Below are positions 6,107 through 64,000 of a stretch of 64,000 nt of DNA, piece by piece (the stretch's first letter is position 1; each line of letters begins with the position of its first letter). The stretch is taken from positions 20,654 through 84,653 of the forward strand of contig JAZNFV010000016.1 in assembly GCA_045576155.1 (NCBI GenBank), read 5' to 3'. Source of the DNA: Tidjanibacter sp. (lineage in GTDB: Bacteria; Bacteroidota; Bacteroidia; Bacteroidales; Rikenellaceae). A program made the position numbers and the translations under genes. Below the pieces are notes generated by a model. That model was not told where the DNA came from, searched no databases, and was given only the letters and a program-made list of their open reading frames with translations.

Positions 6107-9100
6107 TTACTCTTTCTCAGTGTTTTTGTAGATACAAATTGCTGCCTGAGCATCGGTTGCAAGATTTGCTGTTGTCGAATAAGTAGAGAATCCACCCGAC
6201 GAAGACACATAATTGAAACGAACTACCTTGCCAGAACTCTTGGACGTAATAGTTGCTTCACCATCTGCTGCAACATCAATTGTCCAAGCACGACTATTGG
6301 ATGCTTTTGTTGTGTGCATTTTCAAACCACCAGTAGTGTAATACATATAATATGTGGTTCCAGATAAATCAAATTCAAATGCTACTGTACCATCACTATA
6401 CCCTTCCACAAGAGTAAACTTCTGAACATCTTTACTATTAACCTCCTCCGAAGAAATGGAATTACCGTTAATTACCACTTCGCTCTTCTTGGAGTTAGCA
6501 TTGTTGGCATGAGTACTTGTAAAGCAACCAAGTGCGTAATTTGCGTTCTTGGCTACAATGATTACCTCGTCGCCAATAGCGAGTTCGCTTGCATCGGTTA
6601 CAAGTACCCAACCCTTAACCTTTGCGGGGTCAATCTTCTGGGTAACGGTGACGGTGGTCGAAGCCAAACCGGTCTTGAAGGTAACATCTACGCTGCGAGC
6701 TGCCTCAGCCTCGTTGGTGGAGGTGAAGGTAACGGTAGCGGTGGTGTTCTCCGAGGTGGGGTCGGTGGTGTAGCTAATCGTTGCAAAGTCGCAATCGCCC
6801 ATCTCGTAGGTAACATCCAAGCCCGAGGTGGTTGCAATGCTGATGGTTGCAGTAGAACCAGCAGTGTACTCAGCAGCGGTAGCGGTAGCCTCAATGTTGT
6901 AGTGCGAGATGTAGTAGGCGGGCTTGCCGCTCTTACCTGCGGTCTCAACATCTGTCAGACGAGGAACTGTGATGGTAATCACGTCGCCTACTTTCAGATT
7001 GAGGTTGCCTGCAACATTCTGATTGGTTGATTCATCTACAAGACCCCTAACTTGGATAGGATCGCCGCTCTCATCATCAATGGTAAATACAGCGAGGCTC
7101 TGGAAAATATCCTCTGCCTCGATAATCCTACCAGTCAGCTCGTAGCGTACATATTCATTGTCGCTCCTGTCGTTTGCGGGGATTGCAATGTACTCAGCAA
7201 TGGTCATCTTGGGGATGAAGCCCTTTTGGAGCAGATTGAACTCCCAAGTGATGTCGGTCTGACCTGCAAGGGTAGCAGTGATAGTAACGGTAGTCTCACG
7301 AACAGCACCGAGGTTAGCCTCAGCAGTGTAGGTCAGGCAGTTGTTTGCTTTATCGAAAGCGAGCGAGGTAATCCACTCAGCATCGGTGGTGGCGGTAATA
7401 TCCCAGTCGCCAACATAGTTGAATACAACCTCGGGGATGGGAGTAGCGCTAACGGCTGCATCTTCGGAAATAACTGCATCGTTGGCGGTTACGTCGGCAG
7501 CAACTACGGGGATAGTACCCTTAACACCCACCAAGCGGTAGAGGCTCAGAGCTTGGCCAGTGCTGGTGCTACTGATAAAATACTTGCTTGTGTTGTAGGA
7601 GATATAGTTGCCACTGAACTCACCTGCAACATTTTTGATTGTAGCAGCGCCGTCGGCGATGGTAACATTGAAGGATGCGTTCTCATCAACATAGGGCTGA
7701 TTTTCGAGTTTTGCTACGCTTGCAGATGAAGAGGTGATGCTCGAAACAAGGAAGCCCTTGTTGGTTGCATCGTAGAATGCGAAAGTACCATCTACCGAGC
7801 CTGCGCCCAAAACAAAGGTCTGAACATCAAGCGCAGAGGGAACGAGGTAGTAGTTGCCAATCTTGGTAACAGCGGTCTCGGAGCGCCTGTCGGAAGCGAT
7901 AGTGGTGCTCATAGCCACATCGTAGTCCTTAGCAGCGATAATCACTTTGTCGCCTGCTTCGAGGGTTGCAGCGTCGGTCACAAGCTCCCAAGTGTTACCC
8001 TTTGTAGTATCAGCACCCTGAACGATAGCCACAGAGGTGGTTGCCAAGCCATCGGTAAAGGTAGCCACAACCTCACGAGGAGCACCCTCGTTGGTAGGCA
8101 ACTTAACGGTAGCCTCGGTTGCGTTCTCGGTGTAGATGAGCTGTGCAAACAACTCGCTAACGCTACCAGTGATAGTCTGAGGAGTGAGAGTACCACCCTT
8201 AGCGATAGTTACTTTCACATCGCCACCGCTGTATGCAACGTGGTCTGTTTCGACAGTTGCCGAGAGGTTGTAGTAACCCTGGCAAAGAGCGTGAGCCGAG
8301 CTGCTACCACCGTAACCACTATTCGTCTTAGTTGCCAAGATGGTAACTACATTACCTAAGGCATTTGCATCGGTATTATAGAAACTGCTCTTATTGTCGG
8401 CCGTATAAACATACCTAAATTTGGCCGTATTGCCCTTACCATCGGAAATCTCAGTATCAGAGGTGTTAGACTTAACGCTTGTAGTGATAACACCAGTAAC
8501 AAGATACTCAGCGTTTGCATCTACGCCCAACTTGGCAAAATCCTCAACAGAAATAGGCTGAGGCTCGCCCTTCTGAACAACTTTGAAAGTCTTTACGATG
8601 TCATCTTCGCCATCGTGCGAAGCGGTGATGGTAACAACTGCGTTGCGCACTGCACCAGTGTTGGCAGTAGCGGTGTAGGAGAGTTTCTCGTCGGCATAGT
8701 TAAGAGTGAGCCAATCGGCATTGTCGGAAACGCTAATAGTCCAGTCGCCAACATAGTTAAATGCGACAGTTTCAAATTCAGCACCAGTTGCACCCTCCTT
8801 ACCAATCACAACAGGACTGTTCTCAGCAGGTACGGTAAATTGTGCCTCGGGAGTAGGAACAACACCTTTCACACCACCTGCAATTTTGTAAATGCAAATG
8901 TCGTCGTGTTCGTTAGTAATGGTACTCGTACATCCAAATCTACGGTTGCTTGTTGTGTTGCCACCGCTATAAGCTCTATACCTCAGTTTCTTGTATGTAT
9001 GGTCGCTATCGGTTGCTTCAAGAGTCGCCGTACCATCCTCAATAGTAGTATAGAACAAAGACCTACCACTGGGAGTTGTTTGCACTTTCAGATTGTTATT

Positions 9101-10309
9101 TGTGCTATAAGTACATATATAACCACTATAACTGTCGCCATCATACTCGTTTGGCTGATTATAGAACTCAAAGGCATTCTCCTTGCCAGCACGAGGAGCA
9201 ACCACAAGGTGCTGAATCCTATTGTTTGCCTCACTTGCAGCAGCAATGGGGTGGTAGAGATAGTCGCCAATCTTAACAACCTCGGTATATGAAGCATAGG
9301 GATAAGAACTTGCCCATTTACCCATTACCCAATTATAATTCTTCGAAACGAAGGTCACAATGTCGCCTGCTTCGAGTTCGTTTACATCCCTAACAAGCAT
9401 CCACTTGTCGCCGGCAACAACGCCCTCCATATTCACGCCAAAGCGGGTAACCATACCTGCGGCGAATTGGAGCGACTTACCATCGGGAATAGTACCCTTC
9501 TTAACATAGATTTTATCCTCGGTAACAATGGTTACGGTGTATTCGTCGCCAGCAGCGAGGGTGGTGGGCATAAGGGTGAAATAAACTGCACCGTTATTTA
9601 CCGCGCCATCGATAGTAATGGTATCGCTACCCTCTGCAACCACGAAGTTGTGAGTGCCATCCTCATTGGCGATATTTTCGAGGTCGGCATTGATAGTACC
9701 TGCTATATTTTTGCCGTTGGCGGTGAAAATAACCTTCTCAATCGTACCCTCGACACCCTTAATAGACATCTTAGCCACAGCAGCCAAGCGAGTGAACTGC
9801 AAATACTGAGCCTCGGTGGGCTGTGCTGCGGTAGTAACCACCTTCGACACCATCAAATCGGCATTGGGGTCGTAGGAGGCATCGCTGTACATAGTCTGAT
9901 TGTTCGATAAGTAGAGCTTTGCAGCATAGATACTCTCGGAATCACTCTCATAATAACCGGATAGGGGATAGACAGCCACATACTTATACTCACTCTGGCC
10001 TGCATTGTGGTCAAAGGTTGCGGTGATAGTAGCTTTGCCCTCATCGTCTTTGGCATACTCTACATTAGTGGCAGAAGCAAGCGATGTGGTCTGCTCCAAA
10101 ACTGCGAAAGTTTCATTATTACCCCAAGCAAAAACAGGTACGTCGCCCGAAGTATCGACCGATGTACGGCTCTCTGCTGCCGAGTCGGCAACAAAAGTTA
10201 CAACAACCGACTCCTTAGCCTCGATTTTCTCCTCAATATCGTTCTGGCAAGCGGTAAGGCCCATTGCAGCTACTGCAAAAAAGGCCAACATTTTCATAAT
10301 CCTTTTCAT
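6107..10309 (-). CDS. 1400-aa fimbrillin-like adhesin lipoprotein with repeated beta/BACON/OB-like modules
   Basis: Lipobox LTA-C-QNDIEE, strand then SRT (type V pilin-like processing site), BACON motifs (DWLTLN...ANTGAVR; EWITS...ANLGAVR), three WxLVxDxxxLxxGDxV domains. Confidence 0.8.
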   Translation of the reverse strand: MKRIMKMLAFFAVAAMGLTACQNDIEEKIEAKESVVVTFVADSAAESRTSVDTSGDVPVFAWGNNETFAVLEQTTSLASATNVEYAKDDEGKATITATFDHNAGQSEYKYVAVYPLSGYYESDSESIYAAKLYLSNNQTMYSDASYDPNADLMVSKVVTTAAQPTEAQYLQFTRLAAVAKMSIKGVEGTIEKVIFTANGKNIAGTINADLENIANEDGTHNFVVAEGSDTITIDGAVNNGAVYFTLMPTTLAAGDEYTVTIVTEDKIYVKKGTIPDGKSLQFAAGMVTRFGVNMEGVVAGDKWMLVRDVNELEAGDIVTFVSKNYNWVMGKWASSYPYASYTEVVKIGDYLYHPIAAASEANNRIQHLVVAPRAGKENAFEFYNQPNEYDGDSYSGYICTYSTNNNLKVQTTPSGRSLFYTTIEDGTATLEATDSDHTYKKLRYRAYSGGNTTSNRRFGCTSTITNEHDDICIYKIAGGVKGVVPTPEAQFTVPAENSPVVIGKEGATGAEFETVAFNYVGDWTISVSDNADWLTLNYADEKLSYTATANTGAVRNAVVTITASHDGEDDIVKTFKVVQKGEPQPISVEDFAKLGVDANAEYLVTGVITTSVKSNTSDTEISDGKGNTAKFRYVYTADNKSSFYNTDANALGNVVTILATKTNSGYGGSSSAHALCQGYYNLSATVETDHVAYSGGDVKVTIAKGGTLTPQTITGSVSELFAQLIYTENATEATVKLPTNEGAPREVVATFTDGLATTSVAIVQGADTTKGNTWELVTDAATLEAGDKVIIAAKDYDVAMSTTIASDRRSETAVTKIGNYYLVPSALDVQTFVLGAGSVDGTFAFYDATNKGFLVSSITSSSASVAKLENQPYVDENASFNVTIADGAATIKNVAGEFSGNYISYNTSKYFISSTSTGQALSLYRLVGVKGTIPVVAADVTANDAVISEDAAVSATPIPEVVFNYVGDWDITATTDAEWITSLAFDKANNCLTYTAEANLGAVRETTVTITATLAGQTDITWEFNLLQKGFIPKMTIAEYIAIPANDRSDNEYVRYELTGRIIEAEDIFQSLAVFTIDDESGDPIQVRGLVDESTNQNVAGNLNLKVGDVITITVPRLTDVETAGKSGKPAYYISHYNIEATATAAEYTAGSTATISIATTSGLDVTYEMGDCDFATISYTTDPTSENTTATVTFTSTNEAEAARSVDVTFKTGLASTTVTVTQKIDPAKVKGWVLVTDASELAIGDEVIIVAKNANYALGCFTSTHANNANSKKSEVVINGNSISSEEVNSKDVQKFTLVEGYSDGTVAFEFDLSGTTYYMYYTTGGLKMHTTKASNSRAWTIDVAADGEATITSKSSGKVVRFNYVSSSGGFSTYSTTANLATDAQAAICIYKNTEKE

Positions 10310-10324
10310 AGTCCAGAAAAATTT

Positions 10325-10483
10325 TTAGAGTTCAATCCATTCATCGCTGCCCTCTTCTCCGCCAATATATCCGGAGTCTTGACCGGGCGTACCTGCCCCA
10401 CCAAATGGGCTGGCTGCAATACCGTTCTCCACAACTACATCCTCGACGCAGATTGTGGGCTGTGTGTAAATACTCTTTTTCAT
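10325..10483 (-). CDS. 52-aa small peptide (not in ORF track), leader/core-like
   Basis: MKKSIYTQPTICVEDVVVENGIAASPFGGAGTPGQDSGYIGGEEGSDEWIEL*; A-rich initiation region aacaaacaaaaaacact-ATG; homologous to the peptide at 61246-61374. Confidence 0.8.
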   Translation of the reverse strand: MKKSIYTQPTICVEDVVVENGIAASPFGGAGTPGQDSGYIGGEEGSDEWIEL

Positions 10484-34474: not shown

Positions 34475-36964
34475 ATGGATAATACGAAACTCGAAATAAA
34501 ACTCGGCTTTGAACGCATACGCCGTCAGGTGGCCGAACTATGCTCCACCCCCTCGGCTAAGGAGTTGGTGGGTCAGATGGACTTCTCCACCTCGGCCAAA
34601 GAGGTAGAGTGGCGACAGAGTGTGGCCGAAGAGGTTAGGCTGGCGTTGCTTACCGAGCCACAGTTTCCTAAGGGGGAGATAGTGGAATTTAGCATTGTGG
34701 TGGCAAAACTCGCTGCACAAGGCTCTTTTCTGGAAGCCGACGAATTGTTACTTCTGAGCGGAGGTCTGAAAGGCGTTGGCGAGGCCACACGAATGTTTGT
34801 GGCAGCCCGCGAGCGCTACCCTCTTATGGCCTCCGAATCAGAGAAAGTTGAGTCGTTTCCCGACATTGTGAGCCACATCGACACACTCATCGACCGTCAC
34901 GGCGAGGTGAGGGATAGTGCCTCGGCAGAGCTGTACGAGATACGTCGCTCCATACGCGCCCACGAGGGTCAGGCCGCCAAGAGGTTGCAGGCCGTACTGG
35001 CTGCCGCAATCAAGGAGGGCATTGTGGAGGAGGGTGCGTCGCTCTCCATAAGGGATGGTCGCAGTGTCATACCCGTTGCTGCGGCCAACAAACGCAAGCT
35101 CCGAGGTTTTGTCCACGACGAGTCGGCCACAGGTAAGACGGTCTATATTGAGCCTGTGGAGGTGGTGGAGATAAACAACGCACTGAAAGAGTTGGAGTAT
35201 GCCGAGCGCAGGGAGATTATTCGCCTGCTGACAGAGTTTACCGAGAACATACGCCCCTATGGCAAACAGATGGCCGAGAGCCGTCGCTACCTTACCGGCT
35301 TCGACTTCCTCCGAGCCAAAGCTCGCTGGGCCGTAGCCAATGGTGCATACAAACCCATACTCTCCGACGAGGGCACTCTGCGACTCGTGGAGGCCCGTCA
35401 CCCACTGCTCCAACAGAGTCACGCCAAGGAGAAGAAAGAGGTAGTGCCACTGGATTTGCGCCTCAATGGAGGCCGTCGCATATTGGTCATCTCGGGCCCT
35501 AATGCGGGAGGTAAGTCGGTATGTCTGAAAACGGTAGGACTACTGCAATATATGTTTCAGTGTGGTCTTGCCATACCTGCTGGCGGACTTAGCGAGTTGC
35601 CCATTTTCGAGCGCATCTTCATAGACATTGGCGACCAACAGAGCATCGAGAACGACCTCTCGACCTACTCGTCACACCTGACGAATATGAAGGAGATGCT
35701 CGCCGGCGCATCCCCCTCGACCCTAATCCTCATCGACGAGTTTGGCGGTGGCACAGAGCCAACCATAGGTGGAGCTATTGCCGAGGCTATGCTCGAAAGG
35801 TTTGTGGAGTCGGGCACTTACGGAATTGTCACAACCCACTACACCAACATAAAGTATTTCGCCTCCAACCACCAAGGTGTGGCCAACGGAGCAATGCTCT
35901 TCGATGTGCAGAACATACGCCCACTGTTCCGACTGGAAATGGGCGAGCCGGGAAGCTCGTTTGCCATTGAGATTGCACGCAAGATTGGACTTCCCGAACA
36001 GATTATCCGCAGCGCCTCCGAGAAGGTCGGCACAGAGGTTATGAGCCTCGAACGTCAGTTGCGCGAGGTGGCCCGCAGTCGCAACTACTGGGAGCAGAAG
36101 CGCGAGCGCATACGCATAGCCGATAGGCGTGTGGAGGAGATGGAGAGCGAGTATGCAGCCCGCTTGGCAGGGCTTAAAGAGGAGCGTGCGGCCATCATCC
36201 GTCAGGCCAAAGAGGATGCACGCGAAATACTCGACCAAACAAACCGCACGATTGAGAATACGGTGCGTGTGATACGCGAGTCGCAGGCCGAAAAGGAGAC
36301 CACAAGGCTTGCCCGTCGTGAGCTGGAATCGCTCAGAGAGAGGGTTGAGAGCGATGTCGATTACCTCTCGGCCGAGAGCGAGAAGGTGGCCCGCGAGATG
36401 GAGAAGATTGAACGTCGTCGCCAGAAGCGTGCCGAGCGTAAGGCCCAGCGTGGCGAGGTGGATAGTGCGCCCAAGACCGAGCCAGAGCCGGTGGTACTAC
36501 CCATAGTTGTGGGTGCAAAGGTGCGCATCGTCGGACAAGAGGGCGTGGGCGAGGTTCTATCGCTCAAAGGAAAGAAGGCCACCGTAGCCATAGGTCAGAT
36601 TACCACCACCATCGCCATCGACCGCTTGGAGGCCATAAGCCAAAACGAATACAAGAAACAGATGCGCCCAACCTCAGCCCGCACCGTTGTGAGTGTGGAT
36701 ATTTCGAGTCGCAAGCTCGCCTTCAAGGACAATATCGACATTAGAGGTATGAGGGCCGGTGAGGCTATGGAGGTGGTGCAAGACTTCATCGACGACGCCA
36801 TAATGGTGGGCATAGGCACTGTGACCATTCTGCACGGCAAAGGCACAGGTGCGCTCAAAGAGGAGGTACGACGCTACCTGCGCTACATACCACAAGTGGC
36901 CTCCGCCACCGACGACCACCCCGACCGAGGTGGTGCAGGCATTACCGTCGTAAAGTTCAAATAG
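34475..36964 (+). CDS. mutS2: Endonuclease MutS2 (Smr domain)
   Basis: SGPNAGGKS, LIDEFGGGTEP, TTHY, IDIRGM...LHGKGTG. Confidence 0.95.
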   Translation: MDNTKLEIKLGFERIRRQVAELCSTPSAKELVGQMDFSTSAKEVEWRQSVAEEVRLALLTEPQFPKGEIVEFSIVVAKLAAQGSFLEADELLLLSGGLKGVGEATRMFVAARERYPLMASESEKVESFPDIVSHIDTLIDRHGEVRDSASAELYEIRRSIRAHEGQAAKRLQAVLAAAIKEGIVEEGASLSIRDGRSVIPVAAANKRKLRGFVHDESATGKTVYIEPVEVVEINNALKELEYAERREIIRLLTEFTENIRPYGKQMAESRRYLTGFDFLRAKARWAVANGAYKPILSDEGTLRLVEARHPLLQQSHAKEKKEVVPLDLRLNGGRRILVISGPNAGGKSVCLKTVGLLQYMFQCGLAIPAGGLSELPIFERIFIDIGDQQSIENDLSTYSSHLTNMKEMLAGASPSTLILIDEFGGGTEPTIGGAIAEAMLERFVESGTYGIVTTHYTNIKYFASNHQGVANGAMLFDVQNIRPLFRLEMGEPGSSFAIEIARKIGLPEQIIRSASEKVGTEVMSLERQLREVARSRNYWEQKRERIRIADRRVEEMESEYAARLAGLKEERAAIIRQAKEDAREILDQTNRTIENTVRVIRESQAEKETTRLARRELESLRERVESDVDYLSAESEKVAREMEKIERRRQKRAERKAQRGEVDSAPKTEPEPVVLPIVVGAKVRIVGQEGVGEVLSLKGKKATVAIGQITTTIAIDRLEAISQNEYKKQMRPTSARTVVSVDISSRKLAFKDNIDIRGMRAGEAMEVVQDFIDDAIMVGIGTVTILHGKGTGALKEEVRRYLRYIPQVASATDDHPDRGGAGITVVKFK

Positions 36965-57436: not shown

Positions 57437-58837
57437 CTACTCCACAGTGATGGTGTGGATGCGGTTGTAGCCTGTCTTGGCATCCCAAACGTTGTCGTTG
57501 GCCAACTGGATGGAGAATTTGGCATCCTTAGCCAAGCTCTCGTAGCCATCGGGGAGGTTGAGGTAGAGTTTATACTCGCCTGCTGCCAAGTCGGCGGGCA
57601 GGGTGATGGTGGTGTCGATGGTGGTCACGCACTTCTCAAACCAGAAGCGGGGGTCGGTGTTGATTTTGAAGTTGTATTCTTTCGAGCCACCCACCAGCAC
57701 GAGCTCGCAACCGCGAGGGTTCATAGGAGCTGCAAAACCGTTATTGGCAATGTTGAGCACAACGCGGAAGTCGCCACCGGCCACAGCCTTAGGAGTGAAG
57801 TAGGCGTTGGTCAGAGCCAGACGGTAGCCCAAGCGGTTCTCAATCTCGGGGAAGCATTTTTCCTGTTGCCAAGTGCTGATAACATCCTGATGGTAGCCGA
57901 TGTTCATATAGCTCCAATGCTGCTCCTCCATACGCTGTATGGCATTCTCGCAGTGGTGGAGTTTAGCGCCAGTGCCGCAAGTCTCGCCACCCATAATGGT
58001 GTAGCGGGTCTCGGCATCCCAGAAGAGCCAGTCGCCAGTGCCACGTTTGTCGTCGAAAGTACCGGTGTCGCTGGTCGAGGCGAGGAAGCAGTCGTTGTGA
58101 CCTGCCAAACGGGACAAGTCGCTGCCGTTGTGAGCGGTTGCTACGGTGATGGTGTCGGCGAGGGTAACGCCATACATCCTCATCTTGAAGTTGGGAGTAC
58201 GAAGCTCCACCTGACGATCTTTGGGAAGTGCTTTGAGGAGTGCATCGACAACCTTCCTGCGGTCGGCATACTGCTCGTCGGTCTTGATTGGGTAGTGGAA
58301 GTTGGAGGTGTAGTACCACTCGCCCCAAACGCCAATGAAACCTGCCTGAACGGTGTAGATAACGTCGGCATTCTTGTTGAGGATGGGGGTTACCTGCTCA
58401 ATGTGGCGGGCCACCATCTCCTGAGTTGCGTCCCAGGGTTTGTTGCTATTGGACTCGTTGTTTTTGTAGGCAAACCTCACGACAGCCTTAGCGCCACCCT
58501 CGCGGAGGTTGTTGAAGGTGGTCTGCATATTGTCCAAGTAGGCCTGCTCGATGTCGCTATCGATATAGTCGGTCAGGTAGAAGAGCGTCAGGAACAGGGA
58601 GCGACCTGCGGTGCGGGCAGCCGACACAGCCGACTTGCTCAGCGTACCATCGCCCACCGAGTGGTAGGATTTCTGGGTGTAGAAACCACGCTCGGGATTG
58701 ACCATACGTTTGTCGTGCGAGGTGTATGTCACCTCGGTAAGGCCGTCGTAGTTGGGGCCTACCTCATCGGGAGTCTGCTCGCAAGCAACCACCATAGAGG
58801 TTGCAAATGCGGCCAAAAGAAATGCGCTGAATTTCAT
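57437..58837 (-). CDS. DUF4874/DUF4832-type lipoprotein, putative glycoside hydrolase
   Basis: Lipobox VVA-C; NPERGFY, VRFAY, QAGFIGVWGEW, HNDCFL, MGGET, RLGYRL. Confidence 0.75.
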   Translation of the reverse strand: MKFSAFLLAAFATSMVVACEQTPDEVGPNYDGLTEVTYTSHDKRMVNPERGFYTQKSYHSVGDGTLSKSAVSAARTAGRSLFLTLFYLTDYIDSDIEQAYLDNMQTTFNNLREGGAKAVVRFAYKNNESNSNKPWDATQEMVARHIEQVTPILNKNADVIYTVQAGFIGVWGEWYYTSNFHYPIKTDEQYADRRKVVDALLKALPKDRQVELRTPNFKMRMYGVTLADTITVATAHNGSDLSRLAGHNDCFLASTSDTGTFDDKRGTGDWLFWDAETRYTIMGGETCGTGAKLHHCENAIQRMEEQHWSYMNIGYHQDVISTWQQEKCFPEIENRLGYRLALTNAYFTPKAVAGGDFRVVLNIANNGFAAPMNPRGCELVLVGGSKEYNFKINTDPRFWFEKCVTTIDTTITLPADLAAGEYKLYLNLPDGYESLAKDAKFSIQLANDNVWDAKTGYNRIHTITVE

Positions 58838-59070: not shown

Positions 59071-59865
59071 TTACTCCATCTCGGGAAGGTCGATGTAGAG
59101 CATAGCGGGACGGTTCTCGGTAGTACCGTCGCCCTCGCCTACCAAATCCTCGGCCGAGTACTGAGGCAGCTGACCTATCGACGACCAATCCTCGGTCTCG
59201 ACAATAGCGCCAATACCAATGGTGGAGGCCATATCGACAGCGATTGCGGGACGGAGCAACGAGCACTCAAACAGAGCTTTGTCCTCGCTCTCAACAACAG
59301 GCTCTATGGCAGCCACAACACCAAAGAGGCCGAGATCCTCCCAAGCCCACTCAGGCATCATATCAGCACCAGTGTAGATATCGACACCGGGGTTGTAGGC
59401 CGAAGTGCCACCATAGAAAGCACCCTGCAACATAAGGCCTGCGCAGTTGCTCCAAGCGTAGTAGCGACCAGTTGCGGGGTCGTTGTCTTGGTCGATGAAG
59501 AGATCCAAGTAACGCACGCCCGAGTAGCTACCAAGCTCCTCGATATACTGACCGCGAGGGTCAAATTCGAGATAGATGTAGATGTAGAGCTCGTCGGCGT
59601 GGAGTTTGAGAGTTTTCAGCACAGGGTAGGTGATAGTGCCCTCGGTGGGGAGGGTAGCCACAGCCACCTTGCTTGCATCCAGTGCGGCCCAGTCATCGAA
59701 AGCGCCATCAATGGTCACAGCACCCTTAAACTCCTCTTCCTCCTCTTCGGGCTCTTGGTTCTCAACGTCGGGTTTGGGGTTGGGTTTTTTGGTATCATCC
59801 TCCTTGTCGCCACAAGCGATAAGCATAGCCGCAACAGCAGCAATTGCAATAATCTTTTTAATCAT
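59071..59865 (-). CDS. Surface lipoprotein with DOMON/CBM9-like domain (paralog A)
   Basis: Lipobox LIA-C; VTIDGAFDDW, LYIYIYLE, FIDQDNDPATG. Confidence 0.75.
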   Translation of the reverse strand: MIKKIIAIAAVAAMLIACGDKEDDTKKPNPKPDVENQEPEEEEEEFKGAVTIDGAFDDWAALDASKVAVATLPTEGTITYPVLKTLKLHADELYIYIYLEFDPRGQYIEELGSYSGVRYLDLFIDQDNDPATGRYYAWSNCAGLMLQGAFYGGTSAYNPGVDIYTGADMMPEWAWEDLGLFGVVAAIEPVVESEDKALFECSLLRPAIAVDMASTIGIGAIVETEDWSSIGQLPQYSAEDLVGEGDGTTENRPAMLYIDLPEME

Positions 59866-59911: not shown

Positions 59912-61207
59912 TTAGTTGTGTACGGGAATAACAAGAGTACCAGTTGCAGGCAAAACACCCGATGCACCCCAATTCGACAAAACATAAGCTGCTACGCCAA
60001 TATTCTTAGTAGAGATTGTGGGCAATTCTGCACGAGAGATTGCAAACTCTGCATATAATACACCATTTTCCAAAACTGGCATTGCGCCATTGATAGTGAA
60101 CGTGCCGACCTCTGCTCCGTTCTCGTAGATTGTATTGCTACCCCACTTATACTGAATGAGGGCACTATTGTAGATGCACTGATTCTTCATAAGAGCATCA
60201 CCAGTACCAGTCCAACGACAATCAGTATAAGTGCCACCAGTTGCTTGGTCATTATCCAAATCAAGGAATACGCCCATATGCAGCACATCACTTACTTTCT
60301 CAATCTCAACATAAACATAGATATTATCTTTGTCTGCATAGGTTTTCAGGGTTTTCATAGAAGCATAAGTTGCGCCATCGGCAACAGTAGCCACATTCTT
60401 AGTGATATTTGCCCAATCGGTAAATACGCCATCAATAGCGATTTCAATACCAGCAGCATCGCCATCGGCAAGCACCTCTTCGGGAGCGTCAATAGTACCG
60501 AGGTTGTAGATTTTGTTTTTCTCCAATGTGACAGTAGTCGATTTAACCACCTCGCCCTTCACGGTAGCCGAAAGAGTCATCTCACCCTTAGCAAAGAGAG
60601 GAATGTAGGTAGTACCAGTAGAGGTGGTAGTATATGTGTTGTACTGGCCAATACCCCAACTTTTAATCAATGCAAAGGCATTTTTGCTGGTAGTGAGGGT
60701 TACAAGATAGTCGGAGGTGAGTTTCAAGACTGGTGCAGCGCTCAACGAGATAGCCGACTGACCCAATGCATCAGTGCTACCATCCATAACGATACCATCC
60801 AAACCAGCCGAGCTGTCGCAGAGTACGCCCTGACCTGCAACACCGCAACCCAAGTAGAATACCGACATTGGTTGGCCCACAATTGCGCTAACGCCCTCGG
60901 TTTTGCAAGTAAATACAAAGCTATCGCCATCGGTTTTGGTGTAGGTAAACCAGAAATCGCGCTCGTCGCCATAGCCACCCCAAGCGTCGGTTACGCAGAG
61001 CTGGTCGCCCTCCTCGAAGGAGAGTTTGTAGCCTTTGCCCTCCTCAAAGTCGCCCAAAGCAACCCTTGTGGGCTCGTCGATGGTTACGCAAATCGAAACC
61101 GATTCGCCCTGCTGTTCGGGTTTAACGCCCTCCTCAATATCGTTCTGGCAAGCTACTGCGCCCAAAGCTACAATAGCACTTGCGAAAATGTAGAAAATCT
61201 TTTTCAT
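59912..61207 (-). CDS. Fimbrillin-like lipoprotein with C-terminal DOMON/CBM9-like domain
   Basis: AVA-C-QNDIEE, strand then TRV, GDQLCV; C-terminal IAIDGVFTDW...FLDLDNDQATG. Confidence 0.75.
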   Translation of the reverse strand: MKKIFYIFASAIVALGAVACQNDIEEGVKPEQQGESVSICVTIDEPTRVALGDFEEGKGYKLSFEEGDQLCVTDAWGGYGDERDFWFTYTKTDGDSFVFTCKTEGVSAIVGQPMSVFYLGCGVAGQGVLCDSSAGLDGIVMDGSTDALGQSAISLSAAPVLKLTSDYLVTLTTSKNAFALIKSWGIGQYNTYTTTSTGTTYIPLFAKGEMTLSATVKGEVVKSTTVTLEKNKIYNLGTIDAPEEVLADGDAAGIEIAIDGVFTDWANITKNVATVADGATYASMKTLKTYADKDNIYVYVEIEKVSDVLHMGVFLDLDNDQATGGTYTDCRWTGTGDALMKNQCIYNSALIQYKWGSNTIYENGAEVGTFTINGAMPVLENGVLYAEFAISRAELPTISTKNIGVAAYVLSNWGASGVLPATGTLVIPVHN

Positions 61208-61245
61208 CGTTTTTTCTCTTTTTTTGCTAATTGTTTGACTTTGGT

Positions 61246-61374
61246 TTACCACTCTACATCCTCCTCGTTCAGGTAGATGTCCTCCACAAGGCCGTTGGCA
61301 CTTGCAGCAATGCCCTGCTCGATTACCATATAGGCGACCTCCAATGCGGGCGAAACGTAAGTGTTCTTTTTCAT
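61246..61374 (-). CDS. 42-aa small peptide, homolog of 10325-10483
   Basis: MKKNTYVSPALEVAYMVIEQGIAASANGLVEDIYLNEEDVEW*; A-rich aaaacaaacaaa-ATG. Confidence 0.8.
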   Translation of the reverse strand: MKKNTYVSPALEVAYMVIEQGIAASANGLVEDIYLNEEDVEW

Positions 61375-61598
61375 TTTGTTTGTTTTATTGTTCTTAATAA
61401 GATTAGTGTTTGTGTTCGAGAAGTTTTGCTTAGCTCCATCGCGGAGTATCACCCCCGCGATGGATGGTATTTTCTGCAAGCAGTCGGGCGGGATCTTAGA
61501 AAAACCCTTTTTAATTATTCACTTCTCCCGCTCGGTTTGCCGCAAAAAAGTGTTTTGGTTTTGTTCGTTTCTGCTAAACTAATGTGGAGCAACCGAAA

Positions 61599-62315
61599 TT
61601 ACTCAGCATAGTTGATAGTAACGTTGAACTGAGGAGCCAAACCGTTGGGATCCTCCTCCGAGATAACGTTGCAAGGAAGCAGACCGCAACGACCCCAGTC
61701 TTTCGACAAACCTACACCCATAGTGAAGCTTGCGCCGAAGTCCAAAGGAAGCATATCACGAGTTACCTGAATCTCGTAGCCAGCAGCGGTACCCATACCT
61801 GCGCAAGCACCTGCGATGCAAGCATCAACATCCCAGCTCCAACCCTCAGCACCGATCTCGCCGCTCCAAGGATAAGCCTCGCCACCATACTCAACAAAAG
61901 CGCCCTCGCTATATACAGCACCCTCGATGAGGTAGTCAACACCAGCGTTGCTCCATACGTTTGCATAACCACCGGTCATCTCATCGTTGTCGATGTTGAT
62001 GCAGAGGTCGATGTGGTAAACGCTTGCAGGATCGGGCTCGTTCGACTCGTAGTAAACATAGATGTAGAGGTCGTCAGCGTAGATTTTAACTTTCTTCAAT
62101 TCGCTGTGCAGGGTCTCGCCCTCGGGCAGAGTGGCCTCAACAACCTTGCTTGCGTCGAGAGCAGCCCAGTCACCAAACTGACCGTCGATAGTAATTGCGC
62201 TTACAAACTCGGGCTCGGGCTCACCACCGTCAACGGGTTTTTTGTTCTCTTCACCATTGTCGCCGCAAGCGATCAACATAGCAGCCATAGCTGCAATTGC
62301 AAAAAATTTTTTCAT
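61599..62315 (-). CDS. Surface lipoprotein with DOMON/CBM9-like domain (paralog B)
   Basis: Lipobox LIA-C; ITIDGQFGDWAALDASKV, LYIYVYYE, INIDNDEMTG. Confidence 0.78.
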   Translation of the reverse strand: MKKFFAIAAMAAMLIACGDNGEENKKPVDGGEPEPEFVSAITIDGQFGDWAALDASKVVEATLPEGETLHSELKKVKIYADDLYIYVYYESNEPDPASVYHIDLCINIDNDEMTGGYANVWSNAGVDYLIEGAVYSEGAFVEYGGEAYPWSGEIGAEGWSWDVDACIAGACAGMGTAAGYEIQVTRDMLPLDFGASFTMGVGLSKDWGRCGLLPCNVISEEDPNGLAPQFNVTINYAE

Positions 62316-62446: not shown

Positions 62447-64000
62447 CTATCGGGGGTTCTGACCGATGTCGTTTACGTTCAACTCATCCTGAGGAATCTG
62501 GAAGGGAATACGGTCGTCGGTGTACTCCACAACCTCCCAAGTGTGAAGACCTGCAAAGCGACGGTCCATCGACATCTTGTTCCTCCAAGTGTCGAATGCA
62601 CGATGACCCTCGAAGCACAACTCCAAGCGACGCTCAGCAAGTACAACCTCCAACAAGTTGGCGTAGCCGTGATCCTGCCACCTGTGGTCGGTATCGTTCC
62701 ATACGGGGATACCTGCACGGGTGCGGATAACGTTTACGTCGGCCAAAGCACCAGCCTCATCGCCAGCTTTCAGACGAGCCTCAGCACGGTTGAGAACAAC
62801 CTCACCCCAGCGAACAATGATGGGCGACGAAAGGTTGGAAAGACCATCCTGATTGGAGAATTTCTTCTGCATATAGATGGGGTAGTTGTTACGCAGACCT
62901 TTCAGGCCAACGTTGGGACGTACATAGACTTTGGTCTTTGCACCCTCGTAGGTGATGAAGTACTCGGTGTAGCCGTTGATAACCTCAGGGGTAGCAACAT
63001 ACGATGTGCCCGAGTAGGTGAAGTTGCAAGTACCATCGGCATTCTTGGTTACGCCACGAACAACAGCGTTGTTTCGGAAAGCACCACCCTCATCCAAAGG
63101 CCAGTGTACCATAACCAAACCGTCGTTGGTGGTGTCGTAGAGCTCATACTGAGCCTCCTGACGTTTGTCCTCGGGGTAGCGCTCGAAGAGCTCCAAGAGG
63201 GTGTCGGAGTAGTAGTGCTCGCACCAGCCAATACCACCAGTACCATTGGGCGAGTAGTACATCGAACCCAAGCTACCAGTACCCTTATCCTCGGTGGCGG
63301 TGTGAGCTACGCACCAGAGCACCTCGTTTGAAGTGCGAGCGTTGGTGAAGAGGGTCGAGTAGTTAGAATCGAGCTTCGAGGCAATGTTGCCATAGTCGCC
63401 AGCGCTGCCGGTGAGCATAGTGTTCACAGTCTCGATAACCTTGTCGTACTCCTCCATATAGAGATATACGCGCGAGAGAAGACCCATAGCAGCCTCGTAG
63501 GATACATAACCTTTGTCGCCACGAGCGCTCTTGCCCTTCATCAGGCGAGCAGCCTCTTCGAGGTCGGCTACAACCTGAGCATAAACCTCACCTACGGTAG
63601 CACGCTCAGTTACGGAGCAGTCGGTAGAGGTACGCAAGATAACACCGGGGTTGCTCTCACCACGCGACAGAGGCCTTGCAAAGATGTTCACAAGGTTGAA
63701 GTGAGCAAGAGCCCTGAAAAAGTAGTTCTCGCCCTTCATATGTGCAGCCTCGTCGGAAGCGTTCTCGTCGAGAGCCTCGATGTTGGAGTTAGCCGAGTAG
63801 ATAATCTTATAAGCCAACCACCAGAAACCCTGATTGTTGTTCATAGTTGCGTTGTCGTCGTAGGTGAACGCATAGGAGAAGGGGTCGGAGGTAATACCCG
63901 ACAAAACTACGTTGTCGGCGCGATACTCTGCCATCTGGAAGAAGTGACGAACATAGCTATTGCCACTTGCGTAGATGTTCTTGTACTGCAACTCATCTTT
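62447..64000 (-). CDS. RagB/SusD family lipoprotein, 5' end beyond the window
   Basis: GENYFFRALAHFNLV, AAMGLLSRVYLY, RWGEVVLNRAEA, ERRLELCFEGHR, FQIPQDE..N; frame open to the window end. Confidence 0.95.
   Translation of the reverse strand, partial: KDELQYKNIYASGNSYVRHFFQMAEYRADNVVLSGITSDPFSYAFTYDDNATMNNNQGFWWLAYKIIYSANSNIEALDENASDEAAHMKGENYFFRALAHFNLVNIFARPLSRGESNPGVILRTSTDCSVTERATVGEVYAQVVADLEEAARLMKGKSARGDKGYVSYEAAMGLLSRVYLYMEEYDKVIETVNTMLTGSAGDYGNIASKLDSNYSTLFTNARTSNEVLWCVAHTATEDKGTGSLGSMYYSPNGTGGIGWCEHYYSDTLLELFERYPEDKRQEAQYELYDTTNDGLVMVHWPLDEGGAFRNNAVVRGVTKNADGTCNFTYSGTSYVATPEVINGYTEYFITYEGAKTKVYVRPNVGLKGLRNNYPIYMQKKFSNQDGLSNLSSPIIVRWGEVVLNRAEARLKAGDEAGALADVNVIRTRAGIPVWNDTDHRWQDHGYANLLEVVLAERRLELCFEGHRAFDTWRNKMSMDRRFAGLHTWEVVEYTDDRIPFQIPQDELNVNDIGQNPR

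Follow-up and report, generated by a model that had tools for sequence, protein, structure and literature searches.

A conserved small-peptide gene ahead of a pilin-like lipoprotein gene in gut and rumen Bacteroidales, predicted to encode a modified-peptide precursor

We analyzed a 64,000-nucleotide stretch of Tidjanibacter sp. DNA (GenBank assembly GCA_045576155.1, contig JAZNFV010000016.1, positions 20,654 to 84,653), hereafter the window. On its minus strand, a 42-codon ORF encodes MKKNTYVSPALEVAYMVIEQGIAASANGLVEDIYLNEEDVEW, an acidic peptide (net charge −6) ending in EEDVEW, located 38 nt upstream of a 431-aa lipoprotein gene whose product begins MKKIFYIFASAIVALGAVAC followed by QNDIEE. 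The features of the locus are as follows, in window coordinates.
61246–61374 (−): 42-aa peptide gene, stop codon included.
61309–61374 (−): predicted leader, residues 1–22 (MKKNTYVSPALEVAYMVIEQGI), with cleavage predicted between I22 and A23 by analogy with LppA.
61342–61359 (−): YxxPxL motif (Y6-V-S-P9-A-L11).
61249–61308 (−): predicted core, residues 23–42 (AASANGLVEDIYLNEEDVEW), with S25 (61300–61302), equivalent to S3 of the LPP (linear polyphosphorylated peptide) core, as the predicted phosphorylation site; the tail motif of the subfamily is [DE]I[YFW]L.EE.V.W.
61208–61245 (−): 38-nt A-rich spacer between the peptide stop and the lipoprotein start.
59912–61207 (−): 431-aa surface lipoprotein with a signal peptide, a lipobox (Cys20), an acidic export motif (QNDIEE), an anchor strand (VSICVTI) and then T47-R48; a fimbrillin-like N-module of about 240 aa precedes a CBM9/CBM74-like C-terminal domain.
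59940–61020 (−): hypervariable body of the lipoprotein gene.
61160–61400 (−): conserved 'head' (initiation region, peptide ORF, spacer and lipoprotein signal peptide) shared with a paralog on contig C26 of the same genome.
61435–61464: hairpin with a 10-bp stem and a 10-nt loop, about 60 nt upstream of the peptide start, which may be a terminator of the upstream gene or a 5'-UTR structure.
10325–10483 (−): the other family member in the window (52 aa), 15 nt upstream of a 1400-aa BACON-containing lipoprotein (6107–10309, −).
61599–62315 (−): stand-alone CBM9-like lipoprotein (238 aa) upstream of the peptide–lipoprotein cassette.
59071–59865 (−): stand-alone CBM9-like lipoprotein (264 aa) downstream of the cassette.

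The earlier note had described this ORF as a second member of a small-peptide family, and this observation is confirmed, far beyond chance. The two window copies share the N-terminal pattern MKK..Y..P...V....VE.GIAAS, the genome holds six copies, and 22 of 24 genomes of the same genus hold 2–14 copies each, all as open frames without stops. Pfam and NCBIfam scans of the peptide gave no hit, and a literature search by sequence fragments found nothing, whereas an exhaustive HMMER search recovered 701 clusters at 50% identity (E≤0.001), nearly all of 31–92 aa and none fused to another domain. In 40 copies, the conserved Y, P, E, G, A and S positions use all synonymous codons, with Ser encoded by both AGY and TCN, so conservation is at the amino-acid level. 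Y and P are each present in 39 of 40 copies, with I/V/L at +5; A23 is invariant, and residue 25 is Ser in 35 and Thr in 5 of the 40. Y6, P9, E19, G21, A23 and S/T25 are followed by a hypervariable acidic tail, which across the family has 19% Gly, 12% Glu, 12% Asp and about 1% Lys plus Arg; the last residue is W, L or F in 70% of tails, and 74% have an aromatic residue among the last three. The subfamily tail motif is conserved with synonymous changes. Both start codons lie in A-rich contexts (0.4–0.7 A over −20 to −1, against a background of about 0.23), the Bacteroidota type of initiation region. There is no exact TAnnTTTG promoter motif between 61375 and 61598, and a search for an invertible promoter or attenuator found only the 10-bp hairpin, with no inverted repeats flanking a promoter and no sequestered start codon.

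To examine the coupling of peptide and lipoprotein, we inspected 100 unique copies, of which 94 lie −23 to +65 nt ahead of an ORF (median spacing 23 nt), nearly all of these ORFs being lipoproteins with a fimbrillin-like N-module. The homologous polysaccharide-utilisation locus (PUL) carries the cassette at the same place in five genomes (our own and four related genomes, G003, G007, G014 and G023), as does L048, a yak-cecum MAG locus labelled Tidjanibacter sp. and the only locus returned by a related-locus search with the lipoprotein; G011 lacks both genes. Relative to L048, the lipoprotein body is 43–77% identical by sliding identity, while the flanks, the peptide and the first ~190 nt of the lipoprotein gene are 87–100% identical. 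The head shared with the C26 paralog is 78–97% identical in DNA, although the rest of the two lipoproteins is only about 42% identical in protein. Pairing is nevertheless not universal, since in G182, a genome of another family, the copies follow other genes or head an enzyme operon.

The downstream protein has features of the type V pilin superfamily (FimA/Mfa1; PF13149, Mfa_like_1). An HMM of its family hits the fimbrillin-like structure 4K4K at E 2e-9 and the genome's own Mfa_like_1 genes at E 5e-22, while Foldseek on the whole chain listed CBM74 and CBM9 at E 1e-8 and 3e-5 and no pilin in its top 50. In the AF2 model, a strand (P0008 residues 93–99, corresponding to lipoprotein residues 37–43) is followed by a low-confidence loop carrying T47-R48. 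R48 lies at about the same distance from the N-terminus as the FimA Arg46 cleavage site and Mfa1 Ala50, the first residue left after cleavage (PMC13655056), a match of position rather than an alignment. Where stalk pilins have a C-terminal donor strand, this protein carries a CBM9/74-like domain, with CBM26, PUD and BACON modules in relatives, so it would be acceptor-only, like tip or adaptor pilins. PF13149 does not recognise this clade in this genome, and the six canonical Mfa_like_1 genes on contig C35 have no upstream peptide. In a tree of the lipoprotein N-modules, peptide-less proteins cluster (3 changes against 8.8 expected), but deep branches were unresolved and monophyly of the peptide-linked clade is not shown.

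The earlier note's interpretation is partly supported. It had correctly inferred a pilin-like lipoprotein with an additional domain (its 'DOMON', here CBM9-like) and a two-gene cassette, but its proposal that the tail resembles a type V donor strand is not supported. To test docking, we modeled a fusion of the orthologous pair in AF2, reading the in-frame stop through as Gly and using 40 paired fusions; the lipoprotein was well modeled, whereas the peptide remained unstructured (pLDDT 35–50), with no docking and no contact with the signal peptide. This negative is weak, because the anchor strand still occupied the groove in cis. The tails are rich in Gly, Asp and Glu rather than hydrophobic like Mfa1/FimA donor strands such as Mfa1 543–563 (PMC13655056). 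AF2 of the peptide alone, with 130 sequences, gave an extended chain with no fold of its own, which would fit a leader that binds as an added β-strand. An amphipathic-helix reading, prompted by a spurious ankyrin-repeat hit (P0137), was dropped because the model showed no helix.

The conserved 25-aa N-terminus is better explained as a leader. It carries the YxxPx[ILV] motif bound by PqqD-type recognition proteins in lasso and LPP (linear polyphosphorylated peptide) leaders (PMC10368454; PMC13381572). The A-x-S motif follows, its Ser 19 residues after the Tyr, against 18 in the LPP consensus YxxPxVLxHQxIxFET|xxS, in which S3 of the core is phosphorylated and LppA is cut before A-x-S (PMC13381572). 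There is no Sec-type signal: maximum 11-residue hydropathy is 1.15 against 2.51 for the lipoprotein signal peptides, the longest uncharged run averages 8.1 against 15.4, short of the uncharged hydrophobic core of 10 or more residues of a Sec or lipoprotein signal peptide, and 2–4 acidic residues lie between P9 and G21, so a dedicated exporter would be needed.

The genome encodes a single stand-alone PqqD-family protein (contig C23, 36032–36307; PF05402, E 4e-13, with weak lasso-PqqD hits), which has no detectable sequence match to any solved recognition domain. It is clustered with three other genes. The MsbA-like ABC exporter (C23:33857–35569) has ABC_membrane and ABC_tran domains with MsbA/HlyB-like hits. 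A 152-aa S26/SpI-like ORF without a transmembrane segment (C23:35572–36030) carries a GFSMRP motif and matches TIGR02228 only below the curated cutoff (E 1.3e-5, 25 bits against 52; E 1.8e-8 for the G182 ortholog). A 295-aa HprK-like ORF (C23:36653–37540), conserved in cluster position, gives only a weak P-loop-region hit to TIGR04352 (E 1.8e-5). A PF14907 nucleotidyltransferase lies in the cluster in other genomes (E 3e-34 in G182 and in G133, a genome of a second other family), while the homolog of our genome is elsewhere (C14:25630–26463; tblastn E 8e-41). The own-genome cluster holds no precursor-like ORF, the precursors lying on other contigs.

The cluster and the peptides co-occur. In 40 of 41 related genomes, the kinase is present exactly where peptides are; G005 and G016, the only congeners without peptides, also lack the kinase, the PqqD gene and the lipoprotein clade, and G030, the only outsider with peptides, has the kinase. 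Within the genus, however, this co-occurrence rests on few independent events. In a 301-genome sample of the order, 8–10 of the 16 genomes with strong kinase homologs have peptides, against 2 of the 285 without; six genomes with a strong kinase homolog showed no detectable peptide, and one peptide-like hit (genome G218) has no PqqD gene. In G182 a family peptide is the first gene of a K-S-B-N-D operon, and in G133, whose peptides include ILAGS-type variants, two peptide–lipoprotein cassettes lie directly upstream of K-S-B-N-D.

We therefore favor, with moderate confidence, the view that the ORF encodes the precursor of a ribosomally made, post-translationally modified peptide of the LPP type. 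In this view, the YxxPxL strand of the ~22-residue leader is bound by the PqqD-family protein and presented to the cytoplasmic S26/SpI-like peptidase and the HprK-like kinase; the leader is cut just before A23-A24-S25, S25 is (poly)phosphorylated, PF14907 may decorate it further, and the very acidic, Lys/Arg-free core AASANGLVEDIYLNEEDVEW is pumped out by the exporter. Each dispersed precursor gene is fused into a conserved 5' head with a fimbrillin-like surface lipoprotein gene, so that both products would be made together. Our analysis establishes that the gene is real and under protein-level selection, that it is coupled to lipoprotein genes, and that the cluster exists, co-occurs with the peptides and is sometimes adjacent to them; binding, the cleavage site, phosphorylation and export are inferred from sequence and analogy, and the least certain inference is that the exported core acts on or with its neighboring lipoprotein in the periplasm or at the surface. 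Several points weigh against this model: the peptidase and kinase assignments rest on weak, below-cutoff hits, the leader does not resemble the Bacillota LPP consensus beyond YxxPxV and A-x-S, many cores have Pro straight after the Ser, and 12% have Thr instead of Ser, whereas an S3T variant of LppA was not phosphorylated (PMC13381572). Nor does the model by itself explain why nearly every precursor gene sits ahead of a pilin-like lipoprotein gene.

The closest described system is the LPP cluster of Bacillota, lppA-K-B-S-D-N (Popov et al, Nat Commun 2026, PMC13381572), whose precursor likewise combines a conserved N-terminus carrying YxxPx[VLI], an A-x-S motif and a hypervariable C-terminus. 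The predicted gene set here matches that pathway, with the counterparts of its peptidase and kinase assigned from weak hits. That paper calls LPPs restricted to Bacillota and does not mention Bacteroidota. In addition to the phylum, our precursors differ in size (35–60 aa against 35–200 aa), in being dispersed at 2–14 loci away from the enzymes, in being joined to pilin-like lipoprotein genes in almost every case rather than embedded in capsule loci, in the middle of the leader (IEVVEVxVExG[IF] against VLxHQxIxFET), and in their short, very acidic cores ending in W/L/F. Phosphorylated lasso peptide pathways (paeninodin, pseudomycoidin, Bsf) share the YxxPxL motif, the split B1 (PqqD) recognition protein, an HPr-kinase homolog that phosphorylates a Ser (Ser3 in BsfA), the nucleotidyltransferase N and the ABC exporter D. 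We rejected a lasso reading, because none of the seven clusters inspected contains the macrolactam cyclase C or the B2 cysteine protease, and Asp/Glu at core positions 7–9 is not conserved in the alignment as read by eye; the product is therefore expected to be linear. Dispersed precursors with a conserved leader and a hypervariable core, served by one remote enzyme set, also occur in prochlorosin-type systems with Nif11/NHLP leaders, but the chemistry and leader family differ, and those precursors are not known to be each coupled to a specific neighboring structural gene.

Among the alternatives, all of which we consider unlikely, the trans donor strand or cap is compatible with the favored model as its downstream step: the whole peptide or exported core would insert as a β-strand into the groove of the pilin-like N-module after cleavage of the anchor strand at R48, thereby capping, releasing or mounting the lipoprotein. 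The position of R48, the acceptor-only architecture, the aromatic tail ends, the essential role of the last residues of real donor strands, and the export route that the enzyme cluster would supply, which the original idea lacked, are consistent with it. In contrast, the docking result, the acidic Gly-rich tails, the near-identical peptides (92–96%) preceding lipoprotein bodies only about 33% identical, and the lineages carrying the peptide without a downstream lipoprotein speak against it. A cis-acting regulatory leader peptide, whose nascent chain or translation would control translation or transcription of the lipoprotein gene as with SecM, TnaC or SpeFL, would account for the position of the ORF immediately 5' of the lipoprotein gene, the short spacer, co-inheritance with the 5' end of that gene and the absence of fusions. 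However, conservation is N-terminal and tail length varies from 10 to 35 aa, leaving no fixed geometry in the ribosome tunnel, the lipoprotein start sits in an unstructured A-rich region, and neither the G182 arrangement nor the co-occurrence with the PqqD/kinase cluster would be explained.

Least likely is a cytoplasmic escort that binds the signal peptide or N-terminus of the lipoprotein precursor and keeps it export-competent, like VirE1 or type III secretion chaperones. The peptide is acidic and encoded next to its partner, and similarity of the leaders tracks that of the lipoprotein N-terminal 65 aa (rho 0.31) more than that of the body (rho 0.09), but AF2 showed no contact with the signal peptide, a 45-aa peptide is very small to hold 400–1400-aa proteins, and the YxxPxL motif and the link to the enzyme cluster would remain unexplained. 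A secreted antimicrobial or signaling peptide, with the lipoprotein as an incidental neighbor, immunity factor or receptor, would fit the leader-plus-hypervariable-core design, the dedicated exporter, a patchy distribution of the kind seen in conflict systems and the hypervariability of the lipoprotein body between near-identical genomes. Against this, the cores are strongly anionic, the core stays nearly identical while the lipoprotein body is swapped, and a 94/100 adjacency is hard to call incidental. Double-glycine/PCAT export was rejected, since the genome has no C39 peptidase (no PF03412 hit) and the leader has no GG at a fixed position.

A more speculative possibility, which we regard as improbable but not excluded, is that the exported and probably phosphorylated core is a dedicated partner of its neighboring lipoprotein, acting as a trans donor strand or cap, or as a phospho-(glycosyl) handle that fixes, releases or mounts glycan-binding tip proteins on the cell surface. 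A modified peptide would then be a structural or assembly component of type V pilus-like surface proteins, which would also give LPP-type peptides a first biological function.

LPP-type peptides were described only in 2026 and only from Bacillota; our findings suggest that machinery of the same predicted kind is common in gut and rumen Bacteroidales. They add hundreds of unannotated small genes to Bacteroidales annotation and expose a conserved 5' head, peptide plus signal peptide, behind which lipoprotein bodies are repeatedly swapped. The precursor genes are wired, locus by locus, to a specific class of surface proteins, fimbrillin-like lipoproteins that carry glycan-binding modules, often inside polysaccharide-utilisation loci, which provides a concrete, testable hint at function.

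The open reading frame at window positions 61246-61374 comprises 42 codons plus a stop and encodes MKKNTYVSPALEVAYMVIEQGIAASANGLVEDIYLNEEDVEW. It ends 38 nt before the start codon of a lipoprotein gene, and a second copy in the window shares its N-terminal pattern:

61246-61374 (minus strand): 42-aa peptide gene, stop codon included
59912-61207 (start codon at 61207): 431-aa lipoprotein gene
10325-10483 (minus strand): second peptide copy, 15 nt ahead of a gene for a 1400-aa lipoprotein

The small peptide gene described in the earlier note was confirmed. The peptide was not recognized by any family in Pfam or NCBIfam. The assembly (1.9 Mb, 42 contigs) contains six copies, and 22 of 24 genomes of the same genus contain 2-14 copies, each an open frame without stops. 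An exhaustive HMMER search of 1.84 billion representative proteins returned 701 clusters at E<=0.001, nearly all of 31-92 aa, and every name found for them was "hypothetical protein". In 40 copies, the conserved positions use all synonymous codons (Tyr, TAT 20 and TAC 19; Pro, four codons; Glu, GAG 23 and GAA 17; Gly, four; Ala, four; Ser, both AGY and TCN), indicating that selection acts on the amino-acid sequence. In addition, the start codons of both the peptide and the lipoprotein sit in strongly A-rich contexts. The 3' end of the reading frame (61249-61290) is purine-rich and contains GAGGAGGA, a Shine-Dalgarno-like string located about 50 nt before the lipoprotein start. At locus L127 (genome G009, contig C5, 9100-10600), a family peptide is cut short by a stop codon directly after the VDVE of its leader (MEKQYVTPSIELLEVDVE), 23 nt ahead of a lipoprotein gene, representing either a decayed copy or an assembly error.

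The family consensus is M-K-K-x(1-3)-Y-x-x-P-x-[IVL]-E-[VI]-x-E-[VM]-x-V-E-x-G-[IF]-A-x-[ST], followed by a variable tail of 10-35 residues. The tails consist of 19% Gly and 24% Asp+Glu, with about 1% Lys+Arg and a mean net charge of -4.7, and end in W, L or F in 70% of cases. The tail motif of the subfamily to which the peptide belongs, [DE]I[YFW]L.EE.V.W, is conserved with synonymous changes, whereas the largest tail subfamily, which includes the copy at 10325-10483, carries a collagen-like G-x-x-G-x-[AP]-G-Q-x-[SG]-x-[YF] motif, as in FGEAGMPGQDSGF. The N-terminus is not a Sec-type signal, as it has 2-4 acidic residues in its core and its longest uncharged run averages 8.1, compared to 15.4 in the neighboring lipoprotein signal peptides. 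Using AF2 with 130 sequences, the peptide was modeled as an extended chain without a fold.

To examine the neighboring genes, we collected 100 unique copies from 24 genomes of the genus and from other Bacteroidales families. Of these, 94 are followed within -23 to +65 nt by an ORF of more than 120 aa, nearly all of which encode lipoproteins with an acidic surface-export motif and a "...TR/TK...W..GD" pattern. The gene order is, however, not fixed across Bacteroidales: at loci L026 and L040 of G182, a genome from another family, the peptide genes lie 20-24 nt after a large ORF instead of before a lipoprotein gene. An HMM of the lipoprotein N-modules ranked the six peptide-linked lipoproteins of the genome first (E 1e-39 to 1e-71) and then found the canonical Mfa_like_1 genes on contig C35 at E 5e-22; these canonical genes have no upstream peptide. 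The family profile hit the fimbrillin-like structure 4K4K at E 2e-9, and five of the 88 sequences in the alignment (40 peptide-lipoprotein fusions plus 48 lipoprotein-only homologs) hit PF13149 directly. The AF2 model of the orthologous protein has a mean pLDDT of 76 overall and mostly 80-96 through the folded lipoprotein part, and shows an N-terminal strand followed by a flexible loop carrying T47-R48, about as far from the N-terminus as FimA Arg46 and the Mfa1 cleavage site. The C-terminal domain matches CBM74 and CBM9, and in relatives the same N-module carries CBM26, PUD or BACON instead. The description of the downstream gene as pilin-DOMON in the earlier note therefore stands.

The cassette lies within a polysaccharide-utilization locus (57437-58837 and 62447-64000) that comprises SusC/SusD, CBM9-like lipoproteins and a DUF4874+DUF4832 protein. 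The syntenic locus L048, from a yak-cecum MAG labeled Tidjanibacter sp., has the same order: SusD, stand-alone CBM9-like lipoprotein, peptide, pilin-CBM9 lipoprotein, second stand-alone lipoprotein and DUF4874/DUF4832. We asked whether peptide and pilin-like gene are gained and lost together, and found that five of the six same-genus genomes with this locus (the window's own genome plus G003, G007, G014 and G023) carry the cassette at the same place, whereas the sixth, G011, has the simplest form of the locus, with just SusD, one stand-alone CBM9-like lipoprotein and DUF4874/4832, and neither peptide nor pilin gene. The two congeners without any peptide, G005 and G016, also lack the lipoprotein clade.

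Compared with L048, the flanks, the peptide and the first ~190 nt of the lipoprotein gene are 87-100% identical, while the body of the gene (59940-61020) drops to 43-77%, marking a sharp divergence or replacement hot spot in a surface protein. Compared with the paralogous cassette on contig C26 of the same genome (51200-51460), only a ~250-nt head (61160-61400) comprising the initiation region, the peptide, the spacer and the signal peptide is similar, at 78-97% DNA identity, although the lipoproteins are about 42% identical, suggesting gene conversion or body swapping behind a fixed head. Several pairs have 92-96% identical peptides ahead of lipoprotein bodies that are about 33% identical, again suggesting that lipoprotein bodies are repeatedly exchanged behind a conserved head.

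The earlier note had further inferred that the peptide tail loosely recalls the aromatic-ended C-terminal donor strands of type V pilins. As the pair in the window is out of frame, we used its ortholog in L048, which has a 36-nt in-frame spacer, read the stop codon as Gly, and aligned the fusion with 39 other in-frame pairs and 48 lipoprotein-only homologs. AF2 folded the lipoprotein well but left residues 1-85 (peptide, spacer and signal peptide) at pLDDT 31-50 without contacts. This is a weak negative, because the anchor strand still fills the groove; even so, the acidic, Gly-rich tail is unlike the hydrophobic donor strands of Mfa1 and FimA.

We next searched the genome for export or processing genes. 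No C39 peptidase was found, whereas exactly one PqqD-family gene was present, on contig C23, in the following neighborhood:

C23:33857-35569: MsbA/HlyB-like ABC exporter
C23:35572-36030: 152-aa soluble S26/SpI-like peptidase
C23:36032-36307: PqqD-family protein
C23:36653-37540: 295-aa HprK-related kinase-like protein

The gap between the PqqD and kinase genes (36307-36653) holds short tandem repeats, reading GVAGVAGVARVTG and PKLPKLPKF in translation. In other Bacteroidales families the same genes, together with a PF14907 nucleotidyltransferase, form one operon; the PF14907 homolog of the present genome is on contig C14. The C23 cluster contains no precursor-like ORF. A preprint (bioRxiv 10.1101/2025.01.13.632881) reports a gut-microbiome "AMP_c423" family flanked by PqqD and Peptidase_S24 genes, called an RRE-containing protocluster by antiSMASH, which may be the same cluster type.

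Several lines of evidence link this cluster to the peptides. The Y6-x-x-P9-x-L11 segment is the YxxPxL motif through which lasso and LPP leaders bind PqqD-type recognition proteins. Among 41 related genomes, the kinase is present exactly where peptides are, being absent from G005 and G016 and present in G030, the only outsider with peptides; the sole mismatch, G017, is a 59%-complete genome. PqqD is likewise absent from G005 and G016 and present in the peptide-positive genome G261. In a 301-genome sample of the order, 8-10 of the 16 genomes with strong kinase homologs have detectable peptides, against 2 of the 285 without; the six cluster-positive genomes with no detected peptide may hold divergent precursors like those of G133, a genome from another family (YLSPDIEVVEIEFEQNILAGS). 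In G182, a family peptide is the first gene of the kinase-peptidase-PqqD-nucleotidyltransferase-exporter operon, and in G133 two peptide+lipoprotein cassettes lie directly upstream of that operon.

Popov et al (Nat Commun 2026, PMC13381572) described linear polyphosphorylated peptides (LPPs), encoded by lppA (precursor), K (HprK-like kinase), B (discrete recognition protein), S (archaeal-type SpI leader peptidase), D (MsbA-like exporter) and N (NTP transferase). The LPP leader consensus is YxxPxVLxHQxIxFET, and the core begins A-Q-S and is polyphosphorylated on S3; cleavage needs LppS and is inefficient without prior phosphorylation. The authors state that LPPs are restricted to Bacillota and that their role is unknown. 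The Bacteroidales cluster has the same gene set, although its peptidase and kinase assignments are below curated cutoffs and the PqqD protein matches no solved recognition domain by sequence. The peptide has YxxPxL and an invariant A-x-[ST] 19 residues after the Tyr, compared to 18 in LPP. By analogy, we predict a leader of residues 1-22, a core of residues 23-42 (AASANGLVEDIYLNEEDVEW) and phosphorylation on S25. A lasso system was ruled out, because there is no cyclase or B2 protease in any of the seven clusters inspected and, as read by eye from the alignment, no conserved Asp/Glu at core positions 7-9. Our data establish a family under selection at the protein level, its coupling to lipoprotein genes, the existence of the cluster and its co-occurrence and occasional adjacency with the peptides, whereas recognition of the peptide, its cleavage, phosphorylation and export are inferred from sequence and by analogy, and an action of the exported core on or with the lipoprotein is the least certain inference.

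The enzyme-cluster model explains the conserved N-terminus, the variable tail, the absence of a Sec signal, the absence of fusions to other domains and the AF2 results. It does not explain why precursors are almost always joined to pilin-like lipoprotein genes. The simplest inference is that the exported core acts with its neighbor in the periplasm or at the surface; the capping idea of the earlier note is one version of this and is now at least topologically possible. The rival readings, namely a cis-acting leader peptide, a cytoplasmic escort, or an antimicrobial or signaling peptide, fit fewer observations.

Overall, the interpretation offered in the earlier note is supported only in part. 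LPPs themselves are already described; what differs here is that this LPP-like modified-peptide system, as inferred above, occurs in a new phylum, with dispersed precursors coupled to type V pilin-like surface lipoproteins.
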